In this document: positions 1,732-52,699 of the stretch, in pieces
Position numbering within the stretch: position 1 is the first letter of the stretch
How the letters are laid out: the number at the start of each line of letters is the position of its first letter
Assembly: GCA_019057385.1 (NCBI GenBank)
Contig: JAHQJS010000006.1
Coordinates: 773,038 to 837,037 of the forward strand
DNA length: 64,000 bases
Source of the DNA: Candidatus Borrarchaeum weybense
GTDB lineage: Archaea > Asgardarchaeota > Sifarchaeia > Borrarchaeales > Borrarchaeaceae
Reading direction: 5' to 3'
Notes under the pieces: model-generated
The model's database searches: none
What the model was told of the DNA's origin: nothing
Seen by the model: only the letters and a program-made list of their open reading frames with translations
Program-made: the position numbers and the translations under genes

Positions 1732-2146
1732 GTCAACTACTCCACCCTGAAGGGTAGGGGCTTGAAAAAGTTCCCATAACGGAGTAGGAGATTAGCCTAA
1801 GTGATGTCTCCTCTAGGGTGGAGGCAGATGTGCTCGGTTCGAGGCTGAGTGTCTGAAAATCACCGTGGGATGTCCCCCAGTCCCGCGCTCTGAAAGACAT
1901 GATGGACGCACTAGGTCGTTATCCCGAGACTTACACCATCATCATGTCCTGTGCCTGCCTCAACATTGGCGATGGGGACTTACTCCCTTGGTGTTGGGAG
2001 CGACGGGACTTGAGAGTACCCGTCATTAAAACACCACCTGATGTTAGGTTCACAAACCCCTGTGCTCATAGAAAGGGTTGTGTGAGAAATGCCCGACCTC
2101 AATTTTTCTTCGCCCTGAAGGGCTGGAGTCTACTTGAGGTAATCTT
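1732..2146 (+). mobile_element. ORF-less IS200/IS605 element carrying a standalone omegaRNA (HEARO-like) scaffold
   Basis: Starts GTCAACTAC + CCACCCTGAAGGGTAGGGGCTT hairpin like the iscB elements. Shares ATTAGCCTAAG, CACC..GGGATG, TTGGCGA and GGACTTGAGAGTACC with them. Terminal hairpin at ~2105-2130. No iscB ORF. Confidence 0.8.
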
Positions 2147-13877: not shown

Positions 13878-15086
13878 TTAGTTGTTTTCAAACATAAATA
13901 TTAATCCTTTTCCATATTTCAACAGTTCTACGTTTTTGATACTGGTGTTGACCACTGCTCCATTTGAATCACATAATCGTACCCATGCTCCATAATTGAA
14001 TATGCCTTTGACTTTGCATAGTTTTCCATTATAGGCTACCAAATCATGTGGTTGCAACTGGTATCTCTTTCTCCTAATAGACGGTTTGAATCCTTTTCTA
14101 TTCTTCTGTAGCGAACGATTATTGCGCCTGACTTGCATAACCTCATACGGGCGGCAGCGTTCTTGATTGGTTCCACCAGCAATGACAAACGCATCATTAA
14201 CATGAGATTTTTCTAAACCTAACTTATTGCGCTGGCATTTGGTGACGTATCCAAACGTATAATCTGCATCTAATTGCTCTACTAACTTCCAACGAATGTT
14301 ATTCAGACATGTCGGTGCTTTAAGAGACTTATTTGCCTGTTGCTGGAGGTGAGGATAGCCAAACTCCTCGGCAGTCCTTTTTCCTTTCTTTAGATTGCAG
14401 ACTTTGCATGAGATCGTCAAATTTGATACTCGATCTGTTCCGCCTCGGCTTCTCGGAACGATATGCTCGACTTCTAAGGGCACGTTTATTTTGCCACAAT
14501 AGGCGCATTTACGTCCCCACTTCTCTAACAGGTATTCTTTGACTTCATAGCCCTGAAGTTCACCCTGCTGATATTCTATTCCTGTAATTTCTGGGTGCTG
14601 CATTTTGTGGGCATCAAAATTCTCCACCTCAGCCCTTTTGTGGGTGATCGGTAGCAGTGTTTCAAGCTTTTCAACTAATCGAACATGTGAGTCATATCGA
14701 TGCTGAACGCTGGGTGTTAACCATCATTCAGGTCGAGTTCGGTTATTAAATCGAGGCGGTCTATATCCTAATCTACTTCTACGAGTTCTACGATACCTGC
14801 GTCTGTCTGCTAGTTTGTTAGACACATTTTTCCGCAGCGTTACTTTGCCACTGATGACTTCTAACTTATCGGTCTTGGCACTAAATCCGATGTTCGTATA
14901 TCCTAGGTCCACTCCGAGTGTAATAGGTTGCCTAGTTTCTCCAGTGGCATAGCTTAACTGAATGGTAAAAGGACATCTCTGAAAAACGCGTGCCTTCTCC
15001 TCTTGTAATAACTTCTTTCCTTTGTGTTGTGTGGTTGGCATGAGCGGTTGCCCCCTCATGTTCAACACATAGATAGGTACTCTCAA
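13878..15086 (-). pseudogene. iscB: iscB with in-frame nonsense codon
   Basis: ORFs 14724-15086 and 13878-14627 are in the same frame; TGA replaces GGA (Gly of RPEGW in the paralogs). Confidence 0.9.
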
Positions 15087-15365
15087 GTCCTATCTCCTCC
15101 TTTAACGAGTGTTAAAGTCGGTTGGTTCTCTTCGCCAAGGTTATCAGTCAGTACTCTACGATGATCACTGAGCGTTTCCTCTCTGTTTAAACCACCGTTT
15201 ACAGAGCAAGGGACTAGAGAAGCATCCCTTGGTGTGTTCTTTAACTCTCCTGATAACTCAGATACCGCCATGTGTGTTTCACCACGACCTCTCTTAGGCT
15301 AATCAACCAATTACTCTTGTTCCTCACGGGACAAGCCCCCCTCACTTGTTAGGGGGGTGATTGAC
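15087..15365 (-). ncRNA. omegaRNA scaffold of IscB element 2
   Basis: Core nearly identical to 8567-8839. Confidence 0.8.
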
Positions 15366-45407: not shown

Positions 45408-45875
45408 CTAGTCTATGAATATCTCACTGAAATTATTTCCTCCGAAGAAAGACTTCAAAATCTGTTTCGTATCATCCCATCCTTTATCCAAAAATAATGC
45501 ACCGATCACTGCCTCAATAGTATCTGCAATGACTTTTTGTAATCCGTCTTTCCGAACTCCTCTCATTTGAATTATTTCATCGATTTTTTTTAACATCCCA
45601 ATTTTTGCAAGAAACTCGTCTTTAACGAGGTCCTTTCGCATTTCTGTAAGACTACCTTTATCTTTTTCACTAAATTTCGTATAAAGCAGTTCAGCAATTA
45701 GAAGATCGAGGACTGCATCTCCAAGAAAGGCCAGACGTTCGTTATTTTTGTGATTATTTTTTGGACTACTTGAATGTGTTAATGCTAAATCGAATAAATC
45801 TAAATCATTAAACCGAAGATTGTTTTTCTGAAGCCAAGCGTTGAGTAATTCTTCTCTTAATTTCTCTAAATTCAA
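45408..45875 (-). CDS. rnc: Ribonuclease III catalytic domain without dsRBD
   Basis: ALTHSS, NERLAFLGDAVL signature, ADTIEAVIGALFLD; ends at 155 aa. Confidence 0.88.
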   Translation of the reverse strand: MNLEKLREELLNAWLQKNNLRFNDLDLFDLALTHSSSPKNNHKNNERLAFLGDAVLDLLIAELLYTKFSEKDKGSLTEMRKDLVKDEFLAKIGMLKKIDEIIQMRGVRKDGLQKVIADTIEAVIGALFLDKGWDDTKQILKSFFGGNNFSEIFID

Positions 45876-46891: not shown

Positions 46892-47035
46892 GGTTTTTCT
46901 TAAAATAAAGTCTAAGAAAGTCTGAACTCAAAGCTAGTTTAGAAAAATGTTAACTAACTTCCGATGCAAATTGAAGGTCCGCAATACTTGTATCTTTTGA
47001 TCTACTAACTTTAATTGAATGGCTAGGTCCTTCAT

Positions 47036-48326
47036 AGAATCACCCCAAGGAGACTCCCCTGTTTACCGAGGAGAGGAATTGCGTTCTAAAGGATATCTTT
47101 GTGAGGATGTGACAATCTTCTTTTTTACCGCTTTGTGTAAGTCTTTTTCCAGTTCTTACACAATGTAAACTTAACCGATTGTTCAGATTTCCGCCCACAT
47201 AACATAAACCATGCTTTTTGTGGCATATTAAGGTGCCGCGTTTTAGCCCTAATGAGATTGCCCCGCCGTACCTCTTTCGTATGCCGCCTTGTGAAAACTG
47301 CAGCCGGTGTAACTGTCATCGGTGAAATCGTATCGGTTCTACATAATAGAGGCCGGTTGTAGAAGGATTTTTCGCCCCTGTTATGGCGGCGGCCATTACC
47401 CAAGCATCTACACAATGCGTTTCAAACGCCACCTTTGATTTGTTTGGTGATTTCTTCAGTCCAAAGGCCTCCCGTAATTGTTTGGTTTCGTGGCCTTGCA
47501 TGGTGATGAGGATGAGCCCTAGTTTTTCTAGTTCTGCATAAAAATAGTGTTTACCAACTTCCAGCGGACTGAAATTGCGATTCCAGCCTCGCTGATTTTT
47601 CCGTGTTGTTGCCTTGACATCCTCGCTCACTGCGTATTGTAAGGGCAGGATTTTACACAACTGACGGACAAGTCGCAACTTTGCGTCCCATCTCGCCTTT
47701 GTTGAGGGTGGTAAAAACGTTTTATTATTCCGCCTGTTCTTCTTAGATTTTCTTCGGCGGTTTTTTCTATATCTTCGTACTCTACGCATAATTTTACGCT
47801 GTGCTACTGCCTTTTTTACCCAGTCCACCGCTTTTGACATCAGGTTAAGCACCGTGTCCTCTATTCCGACGACTGAAAACCCCTCGAATTTCGTGCCGGG
47901 ATCTATACCTATTGCTAGTGGCTGTGTGACGGGATGGTTGGGATCGAACTCTAATTGGAGGTAAAATATGCCCAATTTATTACGTTTCTTAATGGCTTTT
48001 CTTTGTTCGAGAAGTTTCCTCGCCTTTGTCGGTCTGCACGGCATTAGTGGTATTCCGCTTTTGCTAACGACAGGAATTCTACCGATTGCGGTCTCCCTGC
48101 CCGAGTCGAGTATCCCTTCGCCAATGCCAAGTAGGCTTAGCCTCTTGAGATGAGAGACATGACATTCAGTGGTTCTGTCGAAGAGGAGGGGACTAGGGAG
48201 GCATCCCCGACATTCTTGTAGCCCACAAGGCGTAGTTCTTGAAGTATTTCTTCTGAACTTAGGCTAGTCAAGACTTGTATTGCTACCACCATCACAAGCC
48301 CCGTCCTTCAGGGCGGGGTTCTTGAC
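47036..48326 (-). mobile_element. IS200/IS605 IsrB element with omegaRNA (48326-~48090)
   Basis: 5' GTCAAGAACCCCGCCCTGAAGGACGGGGCTT; 3' end followed by ATGAA; boundaries confirmed by the restored reading frame. Confidence 0.88.
47040..48086 (-). pseudogene. isrB: isrB (HNH-less IscB homolog) with in-frame TGA and ATC at the start position
   Basis: IPVV...PLMP, IGIDPG, SEDV, THCVDAW, no HNH; HR*QLH (probable CGA>TGA) continues in frame to 47040. Confidence 0.85.
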
Positions 48327-48605
48327 CTGTTTGTGTATGTGTGATAAGAAAGATCTGATTGAACTAACATAGAGCAAAATATCATTAAGAATTCCACAGT
48401 CCTGTTGTCTTAAAAATTTTTGTTGATAAAGCATTCTTTTAAAAGGAATATACTTCCTTTGACCCTACATAGTCTATTTTCGCTTAAGGTCAAAGGCAAA
48501 AACTTAGTGAAATACAAATGAATATGCGCCTACAATTGTGCTTAGATTAAAATCAGAAAGTGTTTTATCCCTTTACATTTCAATTCTCTATGTGCTAAGA
48601 TCTTC

Positions 48606-51167
48606 TTAATTTGTAAGTTGAAGATCAACTATGCTTCTATCTGTTCCTCTAGTAACCGTGATTGTGTGGCCAGTGTCTTTAATTGTTTGTGTATGTGTGA
48701 TAAGGAAGATTTGATCGAAGGATTTATTATTCATCAATGCGCTTAATACGCCTTCTCTTCTTTCCGTGTCTAAACTTCCAAGAGGTTCATCTAAAATGAT
48801 TGTTTTAAAATAGATAGGATGTAAACCAGATGAACGAAATGGACGTATATGCCCCATCAATTCTGAGATACCCATTCGTAATGCTAATCCGAGTGCAGCC
48901 TTATCACCACCACTAAGCATGTCTTTATCTTTTTCAAGTCCGTCGACCAAATCGGTAAGTGTTATTGATACACCGTGAGTCTTCCCATGCTTAGTAATCA
49001 AGATCTCATTCATCTTATATTGTCCGTAAGTAAATTGCTGCAGATATTTCGAAACGACACTACGTAATGATTTGAAAAGTTTGTTTTGAATAACTTCTTG
49101 AGAGATAAATTGCTCTAAATATGGTTTAATTAGCACATCATGATGCTTAATAGTTGATTCTTCTTGTCGTATTCGTTTTTCAATGTCGTCTAATTTATTT
49201 ATTTCATCCAATAGTTTATTTAAGCGAATAGTTTCTTCATTAATGTCTTTTTTAAGAGAATTGTATTGGTTAAGTTTCTCTTTCTTTTCTTGAAATAAAA
49301 CTTGAATAGCAGTAATCATATCTTGCAACTTTGTAGCTTTAAATCTCTCTAGTAATCCATTAATGGTATCAACACTTAATTTATTCAAAAGATCCTGTTT
49401 CTGGCTTTCATTTTTTATTTTTTCATTTACTATAATTTCCTGTTCCTGCAAAAGTTTCTGAATTCGATCCTCTTTTTCTTGTATCTTTAATGTTAATCTA
49501 CCGATGTCTGTATTAAATTCTTCCAAACGATCCTTTTTTGATGTAAATTCATTTTTAATGCGTCCAATACTCTCGCTAAGTTCACTTATGTCGCTAATAT
49601 TATATTTAGTTAATAAATCCTCATAAGATGAGACTTCAAATGACTTTAAAAGTCGAGAAACTTCAGTTTCAAGATCTGATAAATTATGGTCTATTTGTTG
49701 GGTTCGTGTTAAACAGTGTGAAATGTTTTCAAGTTTTGAAGAATTCTGTCTAATAATCTCTAAGTTCTCTTTCATGGCACGCATTGAAGTTTCATTTTCT
49801 TGTACAAGTTTTACTAATCGATTGATTTCGTTAGTATAATTCAAGATATCTTTTTCGATTCTCTGAACAACTTCATCCAATTCTTCTTCATCATGGAATG
49901 GAGTGAAACAAGTAGGACAGTCTCCCTTTTCTTTAAGTAATTCTATATTAGATTTTAAACTGGAAATCACACCTCTTTTAGTATTTATTGTTCCCAAGAG
50001 ATCCTTTATCTTTTGTTCGATTTCTGTGAGTGATTTCTGTGCCGTCTCTTCATTATTTTGGAGCGTTTCTCTTTGTATTTTTTCATATTCTATTCTCTGT
50101 TCTAAGGTTTGAGGAAAATCAAAACCAGAACTCGATTTGATAAACTCATCGTCCAGACTTTTAATTTGCTCTGTCAGATTTAGTCGCTTGCTAATCAAAT
50201 TTATCAAAGCAGTAACGCTTTCCAGTGTTGGTAGACTCTTAATCTTTTTTTCAAGAGTTTGAAATTCTTTTTCTTCTTTAGAAAGAGTGTGTTTCTCCTT
50301 TTCTAATTCATTACGATCGTCTTTTAGAATATCATTGAGTATGGAGATTTCTTTTGAGTAACCTTCAACTTGATTTGATGCATTTTTAATTTGCTCGTTT
50401 AATGTTTCTATATTTTGGATATCTTCAATTGTTGGATACTTAACAAGTTTATCATCTAAATGCTGAATAACTTGCTCTAAATTCAATTTATCTTCATTTA
50501 ATTTTTCAATATCCTTTTTAAGTTCAGGTAACAATTCCATTTTTCCTTCAATTCTACTTTTTTCACTCATTAAATCTTGTTGCAGAGTAATATGTTCTTC
50601 TCTCATTTCTTTTAGTTCTTCTTTGATAAGATCAAATTGATCAAGTTGAAATAGTTCTTGAATTTTATTACGAAGTTCTGAGCCGCTTACATTTGCTAGA
50701 TAGTCAATTTCACCTTGACGAACAAAAAATGTGCTGTCCAGTTGTTTCCCATCGCAGTTCATAACAGATTCTAACTTCTTACAAACTGCTTTAGAACCTG
50801 AAATCGGATTGATTAATTGATTTTTCTGATTGTAATCATATATCGTTGCTATTGTCGGTTTGCCACGTGTTTTTTCACGTTTAATTCTATATCTTGCATT
50901 CCCTACTTGAACATCCAATTGTACTTTGCATTTTGCTGCATCTTTTTTAATTAATCGATCTTTTAACTCGTCAATTACTCCACAATCCCTCTTTGATCCC
51001 CACAATCCCCACAAAATCGCTTCGATAAGGCTAGATTTTCCAGATGAATTTCGACCTCTTATTGTGTATAGACCATTTGGCAATTCTGATACATTTGCCG
51101 TTTTGTCTGGTAATTCTAACCTTGAAAATGGTTTAAAATTTTCTACTACAATCGATGAGATCTTCAT
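48606..51167 (-). CDS. rad50: Rad50 SMC-like ATPase
   Basis: GRNSSGKS, VRQGE, coiled coil, CPTC zinc hook, LSGGD, ILDEP, ITH. Confidence 0.93.
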   Translation of the reverse strand: MKISSIVVENFKPFSRLELPDKTANVSELPNGLYTIRGRNSSGKSSLIEAILWGLWGSKRDCGVIDELKDRLIKKDAAKCKVQLDVQVGNARYRIKREKTRGKPTIATIYDYNQKNQLINPISGSKAVCKKLESVMNCDGKQLDSTFFVRQGEIDYLANVSGSELRNKIQELFQLDQFDLIKEELKEMREEHITLQQDLMSEKSRIEGKMELLPELKKDIEKLNEDKLNLEQVIQHLDDKLVKYPTIEDIQNIETLNEQIKNASNQVEGYSKEISILNDILKDDRNELEKEKHTLSKEEKEFQTLEKKIKSLPTLESVTALINLISKRLNLTEQIKSLDDEFIKSSSGFDFPQTLEQRIEYEKIQRETLQNNEETAQKSLTEIEQKIKDLLGTINTKRGVISSLKSNIELLKEKGDCPTCFTPFHDEEELDEVVQRIEKDILNYTNEINRLVKLVQENETSMRAMKENLEIIRQNSSKLENISHCLTRTQQIDHNLSDLETEVSRLLKSFEVSSYEDLLTKYNISDISELSESIGRIKNEFTSKKDRLEEFNTDIGRLTLKIQEKEDRIQKLLQEQEIIVNEKIKNESQKQDLLNKLSVDTINGLLERFKATKLQDMITAIQVLFQEKKEKLNQYNSLKKDINEETIRLNKLLDEINKLDDIEKRIRQEESTIKHHDVLIKPYLEQFISQEVIQNKLFKSLRSVVSKYLQQFTYGQYKMNEILITKHGKTHGVSITLTDLVDGLEKDKDMLSGGDKAALGLALRMGISELMGHIRPFRSSGLHPIYFKTIILDEPLGSLDTERREGVLSALMNNKSFDQIFLITHTQTIKDTGHTITVTRGTDRSIVDLQLTN

Positions 51168-51224
51168 TAAGATCGCCTCTGGAGCCTCTTTCCTTTTAAG
51201 CTGGAGAGGAAAGAGGTGCAGAAA

Positions 51225-52427
51225 CTAACATAACGTGAATAATAACCCTTTTCCATATTTTACCAACTTAACGTTTTTAATTGCAATACTTGGATTTTTC
51301 CCTTTAGGATTTTCTAACACAACGCGCTTTCCAAGACAATGAACTCCTTTTACTCTATAGATTTTATTGTTATATTTTACAAGGTCATACGGTTGTAATT
51401 TGTATATCTGTCTCCTAATTGATGGCTTAAACCCTTTTCTATTCTTCTGTAGCGAACGATTATTTCTTCTGATTTGCTTGACCTTATACCGTCGGCAGCG
51501 TTCTTGATTGCTTCCACCAGCAATGACAAACGCATCGCTAACATGCGACTTTTCTAGCCCTAGTTTGGTACGCTGATATTTAGTAACGTATCCGTAGGTA
51601 TGCTCTGCCCCTAACTGCTCAACTATCCTCCAACGGAAAATATTCAAACATGTAGGTGCTTTAAGTGGTTGATTTGCCTGGTGCTGGATGGTAGAATAGC
51701 CAAACTCCTCAGCGGTCTGATTTCCCTTCTTTACATTACAAGTTCTACATGAGATTGTCAAATTAGACACTCGATCTGACCCACCTCTGCTTTTAGGAAT
51801 AATATGCTCGACTTCTAAAGGGATATCCTTTTTACCACAATAAGCACATGTTCGCCCCCACTTGTCTAACAGGTATTCCTTGACTTCGTAACCCTGAAGT
51901 TCACCCTGCTGATATGCTATGCCTGTAATTTCTGGCTGCTGCATTTTTTGAGTGTCGAAATTGGCTACTTCTACCCTTTTGTAGGTTATCGGTAGTATTG
52001 TTTCAAGCTTCGCAACTAATCTAATATGTGAATCTAATCTATGTTGATTACTAGGTGCTAACCATCCTTTAGGTCTTGTTCGGTTATTAAATCGAGGTGA
52101 TCTATACCCTAATCTTCTTCTACGGGCTTTGCGATACATCCGTCGTTCTTCTAGTTTTTGAGGCATATCTTTCCGAAGTGTTACTGTCCCACTTATGAGC
52201 TCTAACTTGTCGTTTTTGGCACTAAAACCGATGTTCGTATATCCGAGGTCCACTCCAAGTGTAATCGGTTGCCTAGTTTCTCCGGTGGAATAGTTCAACT
52301 GAATGGTAAAAGGGCATCTCTGAACAACGTGTGCCTTGCCGTCTCGTAGTAATTTCTTTCCTTTGGGTTGTGTAGTAGGCATGAGAGGTTGCCCTCTCAT
52401 GTTCAACACATAGATAGGTACTCTCAA
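51225..52427 (-). CDS. iscB: IscB RNA-guided endonuclease
   Basis: PLMP, LGVDLG, VEVANFD, HNH, SHVSDA all intact. Confidence 0.95.
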   Translation of the reverse strand: MRVPIYVLNMRGQPLMPTTQPKGKKLLRDGKAHVVQRCPFTIQLNYSTGETRQPITLGVDLGYTNIGFSAKNDKLELISGTVTLRKDMPQKLEERRMYRKARRRRLGYRSPRFNNRTRPKGWLAPSNQHRLDSHIRLVAKLETILPITYKRVEVANFDTQKMQQPEITGIAYQQGELQGYEVKEYLLDKWGRTCAYCGKKDIPLEVEHIIPKSRGGSDRVSNLTISCRTCNVKKGNQTAEEFGYSTIQHQANQPLKAPTCLNIFRWRIVEQLGAEHTYGYVTKYQRTKLGLEKSHVSDAFVIAGGSNQERCRRYKVKQIRRNNRSLQKNRKGFKPSIRRQIYKLQPYDLVKYNNKIYRVKGVHCLGKRVVLENPKGKNPSIAIKNVKLVKYGKGLLFTLC

Positions 52428-52699
52428 GTCCTATCTCCTCCTTTAAATTGCTTTAAAGTCGGTTGGTTCTCTTCGCCAAGGTTATCAGTCAGTACTCTAC
52501 GATGATCACTGAGAGTTTCCTCTCTGTTTAAACCACCGTTTACAGAGCAAGGGACTAGAGAAGCATCCCGTGGTGTGTTCTTTAACTCTCCTGATAACAT
52601 AGATATCGTCATAAACTATATGACCTCTCTTAGGCTAATCAACTAATTGCTCTTACTCCTCACGGAATAAGCCCCTACCTTTTGGGTGGGGTATTTGAC
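52428..52699 (-). ncRNA. omegaRNA scaffold of IscB element 3
   Basis: Core nearly identical to the other two iscB scaffolds. Confidence 0.8.

Follow-up and report, generated by a model that had tools for sequence, protein, structure and literature searches.

An IsrB–omegaRNA element within rad50 of an Asgard archaeon: probable interruption and rescue of the gene, with a guide match that appears to be inherited from a duplicated flank

Cas9 and Cas12 descend from the OMEGA nucleases (IscB, IsrB and TnpB); IsrB–omegaRNA elements were reportedly described by Altae-Tran in 2021 as OMEGA elements of the IS200/IS605 family, and to our knowledge the workings of OMEGA systems have been established in a few bacteria, with hardly any studies in archaea. 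Here we describe an IsrB-type element located within the 3′ end of rad50 in a stretch of 64,000 nucleotides from the Asgard archaeon Candidatus Borrarchaeum weybense (assembly GCA_019057385.1, contig JAHQJS010000006.1, positions 773,038 to 837,037 of the forward strand), hereafter denoted the window, to which unprefixed positions refer. The genome of the window (4.18 Mb, 8 contigs, 37% G+C) is denoted G000, and is compared with the related genomes G001, G003 and G004, with loci or contigs of further relatives (L numbers), and with database Rad50 proteins (P numbers). Over 21 nt, the guide of the omegaRNA is identical to codons of the live rad50 gene next to it, which an earlier note, made from the window alone, had read as near-self-targeting; the comparison presented here points instead to the interruption of a working rad50, probable rescue of the gene by a replacement 3′ end, and a guide match left over from duplication of the insertion flank.

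In IscB-type systems the omegaRNA scaffold comes from the right end of the transposon and the DNA immediately beyond that end serves as the guide, whilst the donor joint consists of the target-adjacent motif (TAM) abutting the right-end flank, the TAM being common to TnpA and the nuclease (Meers et al., bioRxiv 10.1101/2023.03.14.532601). Since IscB and IsrB guides are transposon right-end flanks, the guide of the element described here is the rad50 DNA at its insertion site. Known IsrB OMEGA elements, including DtIsrB with its NTGA TAM (PMC9581776), encode a protein of about 350 residues with PLMP and RuvC but without HNH, and have a HEARO-type omegaRNA upstream on the same strand, a guide outside the transposon end and an NTGA-type TAM; the element in the window is alike in each of these respects, its TAM (ATGA-A) fitting NTGA. 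Unlike them, it resides in an Asgard host, inside the coding 3′ end of rad50, lacks a canonical start codon (as do all four paralogs) and carries a nonsense codon. As in other right-end-flank guide systems, the guide records the flank, the joint of flank and TAM is the natural target, and the presence of an upstream gene in the same orientation means that read-through can make the omegaRNA; what sets this locus apart is that the chromosome carries the flank a second time, within a live gene and without a TAM. Self-targeting CRISPR spacers, which are tolerated through mutation of the PAM or protospacer or through loss of cas genes, present a similar picture, with a guide that matches a host gene, a missing adjacent motif and a nuclease that is broken in some genomes, but the match described here arises by duplication of an insertion flank and not by spacer acquisition.

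The features of the locus are collected in Table 1. The element proved to be of the IsrB–omegaRNA type, as the earlier note had it. The isrB product matches only RRXRR in Pfam (2e-34), with the IGIDPG, SEDV and ETHCVDAW motifs present, whereas a neighbouring IscB matches HNH as well. The adjoining RNA, on the same strand, matches the full RF02033 model (1–211) at 48105–48326 (−) with 80.1 bits (E 5e-16); the gathering score is 83, but a score below gathering is also typical of other IsrB-type copies in the genome, and the scaffold keeps 66 consensus pairs, of which 16 show compensatory changes when five copies are compared. A Y1 TnpA is encoded outside the element, by the one PF01797 gene in the genome (C7:194221–194586, 131 bits). 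The protein type, the adjoining HEARO RNA, the precise insertion next to a TAM and the available TnpA are all those of an IsrB-type OMEGA element; an intact nuclease is what the window copy lacks, owing to a single in-frame TGA at 47316–47318, which the earlier note had also identified. The element is thus an ordinary IsrB/IS200–IS605 member in an unusually informative natural setting.

Table 1. Features of the interrupted rad50 locus and of the second OMEGA element (window positions)
Feature	Position	Strand	Remarks
Whole IS200/IS605-type element	47036–48326	−	1,291 bp; without target-site duplication; empty sites in G003 and G004
isrB	47040–48077	−	PLMP/RRXRR and RuvC, without HNH; in-frame TGA; without canonical start
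omegaRNA scaffold, HEARO type	48078–48326	−	Structurally intact
TAM ATGAA	47031–47035	−	Abuts the left end of the element as TnpA defines it
3′ part of ancestral rad50 end	46950–47035	−	DEGPSHSIKVSRSKDTSIADLQFASEVS, then stop; frame still open
5′ part of ancestral rad50 end	48327–48363	−	Codons FNQIFLITHTQT plus G; last 20–21 nt are the omegaRNA guide
Segment X	48364–48683	−	Replacement Rad50 tail 48606–48683 (IKDTGHTITVTRGTDRSIVDLQLTN, then stop) and 242-nt spacer
AT-rich palindromic TATA-like motif in X	48405–48460	−	56 nt; TTCCTTTTAAAAGAA palindrome
Would-be TAM position, live gene	48678–48683	−	A then TTAAA, versus G then ATGAA in the relic and empty sites
Protospacer-like 21 nt in live rad50	48684–48704	−	Codons LITHTQT including the H-loop His; identical to guide-side flank
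Live rad50	48606–51167	−	853-aa open reading frame; Walker A/B, zinc hook and H-loop intact
Second element: iscB	51225–52427	−	
Second element: HEARO RNA	52462–52699	−	124.7 bits

The limits of the element and the point of insertion are given by two sister genomes of the same genus, which have empty sites. In G003 and G004, rad50 reads ...FDQIFLITHTQT-DEGPSHSI(N/K)VSRSKDTSIADLQF... up to its stop codon and is directly followed by a convergent UbiA gene; comparison with these sites places the insertion between ...ACAAACAG and ATGAAGG, just 3′ of the H-loop codons. The flank therefore begins with ATGAA, and the 3′ boundary of the element lies at 47036 and not near 47018, where it had been put previously. 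RTGAA stands next to the element end in 4/4 IsrB copies of the genome and in most of its 12 IscB copies.

Excision of the element in silico yields an in-frame Rad50 tail ending DEGPSHSIKVSRSKDTSIADLQFASEVS and a stop codon, in agreement with the earlier note, which had described this end as a diverged relic into which the element had inserted. Our comparison reverses that description. The interrupted tail is identical to the working tail of G003 at 80/84 nt, whereas the tail of the live gene, counted from the base after ...ACAAACA, matches the ancestral tail at only 50/75 positions (67%) and the most distant family allele (P0014) at 54/75. Immediately before the junction of the live tail, 36/36 nt are identical to G003, and the rad50 body is approximately 91% identical. 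Tails of the live type (here termed X-type, after segment X, which supplies this end of the gene) are found only in P0001–P0004 among the database relatives, with 11/11 other family alleles reading TQT[DN]E. Judged by these alignments, the supposed relic is the ancestral orthologous end, and the live end is the diverged newcomer.

The live gene otherwise has the features of an archaeal rad50 within an Mre11–Rad50 operon. Its product contains the AAA_23, SMC_N and Rad50_zn_hook domains (Pfam), its C-terminus can be aligned to that of P. furiosus Rad50 (1F2T) with a histidine at the H-loop position, same-genus orthologs are 89–90% identical, and the gene order DUF87/HerA, Metallophos (mre11), rad50 is seen in relatives.

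The reported identity between the guide-side flank and the H-loop codons is exact (48328–48348 and 48684–48704, 21/21 nt) and makes up the 3′ two-thirds of a longer direct repeat of 36 nt (48328–48363 versus 48684–48719, 33/36 identical). Among the 36 omegaRNA guides of the genome, the rad50-flank guide is the only one with a second genomic match at ≤1 mismatch; together with homology that runs past the 21 nt, this excludes a chance match. A second candidate for a self-matching guide (omegaRNA at C7:348633) has a match with two mismatches at C5:375693, without flanking homology, and was set aside as chance. A guide taken from the right-end flank, together with duplication of that flank, accounts for the identity of guide and gene without any targeting logic, and the match to the live gene is apparently an inherited leftover of the duplicated flank, without aimed targeting. 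Selection holding guide and gene identical was also considered and rejected: the three differences in the repeat all fall in the 15 nt outside the 21-nt identity, but such a placement has a chance probability of about 0.07, and in the G001-type lineage (three samples) the guide matches at 20/21.

The sequence next to the protospacer-like stretch of the live gene differs from that of the ancestral site, as the earlier note had recognised. The TAM-proximal base of the guide (G, 48327) faces an A, and the next five bases are TTAAA where the ancestral site has ATGAA, a difference at 2/5 TAM positions. A shift of one nucleotide gives ATTAA, which had been proposed to fit a TAM of the form RTNAA; the copies in this genome show RTGAA, and neither register fits RTGAA or NTGA, so that no valid TAM is present. 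Without an RTGAA TAM, and with a mismatch at the last base of the guide, live rad50 should escape nicking. It is tempting to regard the replacement of DE by IK in the live tail as a TAM-escape mutation, but this idea is weakened by P. furiosus Rad50, which has LKD where the live tail has IKD; IKD thus resembles a normal Rad50 variant, and the X tail may have been TAM-less natively rather than mutated to escape.

Segment X contributes 26 codons (25 residues and the stop) to the live gene, in addition to its spacer, and is absent from the empty-site genomes. Its donor was not found by blastn or tblastn against its own genome, which gave only a 56-nt promoter-like motif, nor in a DNA search of 400 Asgard genomes, in which X occurred only in G000 and G001, nor in a protein database search, which returned X-type tails only in P0001–P0004. 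An origin by tandem duplication was rejected, as identity falls at the junction from 36/36 to approximately 67% and nothing corresponding to the spacer is present downstream of the relic; a match to Rfam RT-14 in X (25.8 bits, E 0.77) was treated as chance. The 56-nt motif (48405–48460) is 89% identical to C4:964390–964445, directly upstream of a 524-aa open reading frame, with a counterpart also present in G004; such a motif could represent a shared archaeal promoter or operator, and the copy in X could drive transcription toward the omegaRNA. A scan for sigma-70 promoters and intrinsic terminators was uninformative, the host being an archaeon. The spacer also contains a 12-bp inverted repeat with a 17-nt loop (48456–48496), which is kept in G001.

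These observations suggest the following order of events. In an ancestor of the Borrarchaeum/Sifarchaeum-like Asgard lineage, the OMEGA element would have inserted at ATGAA right after the H-loop codons, severing the last 28 codons of rad50. The gene would then have been re-completed by a 356-bp piece upstream of the element, consisting of the 36-nt H-loop duplicate, a foreign or highly diverged tail, and the 242-nt spacer. The left edge of X lies ≤1 nt from the insertion point, and its right edge meets the old gene at a point 36 nt upstream of the element, which would have given rise to the 36-nt duplication. As candidate mechanisms, X may have been acquired by illegitimate recombination with foreign rad50 DNA, facilitated by homology, or in the course of break repair, through a template switch at the transposon end. 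In its normal role, IsrB–omegaRNA would nick the ancestral-type site (protospacer and ATGAA), promoting re-copying of the element; a site of this type would be regenerated by TnpA excision, or arrive in an incoming wild-type allele. We put the probability that the element disrupted a working rad50, that the gene was later rescued by X, and that the guide match is duplicated flank, at roughly 0.75.

Three points weigh against this reading. With the donor of X unlocated, rescue after insertion is deduced only from the X junction lying ≤1 nt from the insertion point. One pattern scan of JGI metagenome contigs revealed no unrescued intermediate in which the rad50 body abuts the element; the scan gave three contigs, all consistent with the composite arrangement, with no X-type allele lacking the element either. 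Finally, G001 and the empty-site genome G003 share 97% identity in the rad50 body, and the composite allele therefore does not follow the rad50-body phylogeny; its history includes recombination, and the order of events is unreadable from the tree.

The lack of an unrescued intermediate in the JGI contigs would suit the reversed order, in which the X tail was acquired first, the native end became a dead fossil, and IsrB then landed harmlessly in the fossil ATGAA. On this order no deleterious intermediate is required, the fossil being already non-functional when the element arrives, and ATGAA is a generic target, a second element having used ATGAA at the rad50 start codon. We nonetheless regard the reversed order as unlikely, since the position of the left edge of X, ≤1 nt from the insertion point, would then be a coincidence, every X-type allele that extends far enough has the element, and the fossil tails follow the variants of working alleles rather than random decay. 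The element thus more likely hit a working rad50, rescued afterwards, than an end that was already a relic, as the earlier note had supposed.

The comparison with related genomes, which the earlier note had suggested, revealed isrB in three states besides the empty sites. In the G001-type lineage (G001, L028, L029) the gene is intact and the guide matches live rad50 at 20/21; in the window, isrB has the in-frame TGA and the guide matches at 21/21; and in the closest relative (L045), where the guide also matches at 21/21, there is no TGA but a 33-nt (11-codon) deletion between ATCCCG repeats, with loss of the RuvC-I IGIDPG motif. Only the G000 assembly has the TGA, paralogs and orthologs having Arg at the same position; it cuts the protein upstream of its last ~91 residues, which probably correspond to the C-terminal region where Hirano et al. 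place the TAM-interacting domain. The Arg-to-TGA change is recent and leaves the element crippled here, unless protein is provided by a paralog. The absence of an ATG, also reported earlier, is real (the sequence ahead of the PLMP motif offers no ATG, GTG or TTG) but does not signify decay: the three other IsrB paralogs of the genome are uninterrupted and likewise have a non-canonical codon (ATT, GTT or ATA) where the start would align, as is the case for intact orthologs, so that the missing start is a family trait.

The two lesions raise the question of whether live rad50 suffers weak, costly nicking despite its poor TAM, loss of isrB having been selected. Both sampled genomes with a 21/21 guide carry different, independent lesions, the guide is 20/21 in the lineage that keeps isrB intact, and only 2/15 other RRXRR genes in G000 appear broken. 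The lesions are suggestive of selection against an active nuclease, although they come from two genomes and ordinary decay of a non-autonomous element explains them equally well; selected inactivation of isrB is possible but unproven. Comparison of isrB between G000 and G001 gave a ratio of non-synonymous to synonymous substitution rates (dN/dS) of 0.14 with a dS of 0.27, indicating purifying selection on the gene for most of the time the near-self match existed, in the face of essentially the same target. Given also that the TAM differs at 2/5 positions and the seed-end base is mismatched, we consider real near-self-targeting of this kind quite improbable, and the identity of the guide, to which such logic had originally been ascribed, is accounted for by the duplicated right-end flank and is not shared by the G001-type guide (20/21).

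That the three intact IsrB paralogs use the omegaRNA of the broken copy in trans, and that it has been retained for this reason, would agree with its intact scaffold and with the excess of HEARO-type RNAs over RRXRR genes in the genome (36 versus 16, solo omegaRNAs being common), but is very unlikely, as the four IsrB copies are only ~67–71% identical in DNA, their scaffolds have diverged, and an intact scaffold is expected anyway after so recent a nonsense mutation.

The locus also has a mosaic history. The composite arrangement is common to G001, L028 and L029 (92–94% identical to the window) and to L045 (94.7%). In G001 there is a sharp recombination breakpoint near the mre11 start (G001:C53, with L041 and L019, versus G003:C204): upstream of it, in the herA region, G001 is 80–85% identical to its congeners, whereas from mre11 through rad50 it is 97–99% identical to G003. 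On this pattern of identity, G001 imported mre11–rad50 from a G003-like donor, probably together with the cassette. The right flank of the element is G003-like in G000, G004-like in L045 and of a different context in G001, and the cassette, 92–95% identical between genomes, thus occurs in three different local backgrounds, a pattern that fits frequent recombination in the operon. In L045, an apparently structured, G+C-rich insert of ~440 nt, absent from the window, lies between the relic tail and UbiA (reverse-complement ~1560–2005); Rfam gives no match to it at E ≤ 0.001.

A further comparison is with synthetic 'home-and-rescue' gene drives and with functional resistance alleles. As in such drives, a nuclease cassette lies in an important gene, and the part that it disrupts is replaced by a recoded version immune to cleavage; unlike them, the arrangement here is natural, drive behaviour is hypothetical, and the resemblance may be accidental. 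If the block of TAM-less rad50 end, 36-nt flank and IsrB element were to act in this way, the omegaRNA would target a wild-type rad50 allele, nick-stimulated recombination would copy the whole block in, and the host would keep Rad50 because the block carries its own nick-immune rad50 end. The three local backgrounds of the cassette and the import in G001 are consistent with such behaviour but are no proof of it, and that the block is a natural cassette of this kind seems to us doubtful.

OMEGA elements are abundant elsewhere in the genome and in the window. G000 holds 16 RRXRR genes (12 IscB and 4 IsrB), 36 HEARO-type RNAs and a single Y1 TnpA, with approximately 20 of the omegaRNAs standing alone, for example a 63.5-bit match at 1732–1983 (+). 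A second, intact OMEGA element lies exactly between mre11 and rad50 (51168–52699, −), inserted before the ATGAA that constitutes the rad50 start codon; the closest relative at this position (L025) has an uninterrupted ...AAACATGAAG overlap. As a consequence of this insertion, Mre11 gains a short new tail (...EEASNTPPKR, then stop) and rad50 is now 1.5 kb from mre11. An IscB copy at ~14562–15365 (−) (G000:C6:787599–788402), with a HEARO RNA of 121.4 bits, has an in-frame TGA (...RTRPE, then stop) followed by TGG TTA, and is probably a Gly-to-stop pseudogene. A stand-alone, 155-aa RNase III-domain protein (Ribonucleas_3_3, 1.7e-28) is encoded at 45408–45875 (−), and is next to UbiA in the relative L030 also.

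The locus amounts to a natural experiment in related genomes, with empty sites, a filled site, and a live protospacer that lacks both the TAM and the seed-end base, alongside a nuclease gene that occurs intact, with a nonsense codon, or with a catalytic motif deleted. How stringently an Asgard IsrB reads TAM and seed can be tested simply at this locus, as can the question of whether such elements exert selective pressure on host genes. For genome scans it also supplies a cautionary rule, namely that a match between an IscB or IsrB 'guide' and a nearby gene should be taken in the first place as a record of the insertion site, and not as a sign of aim.

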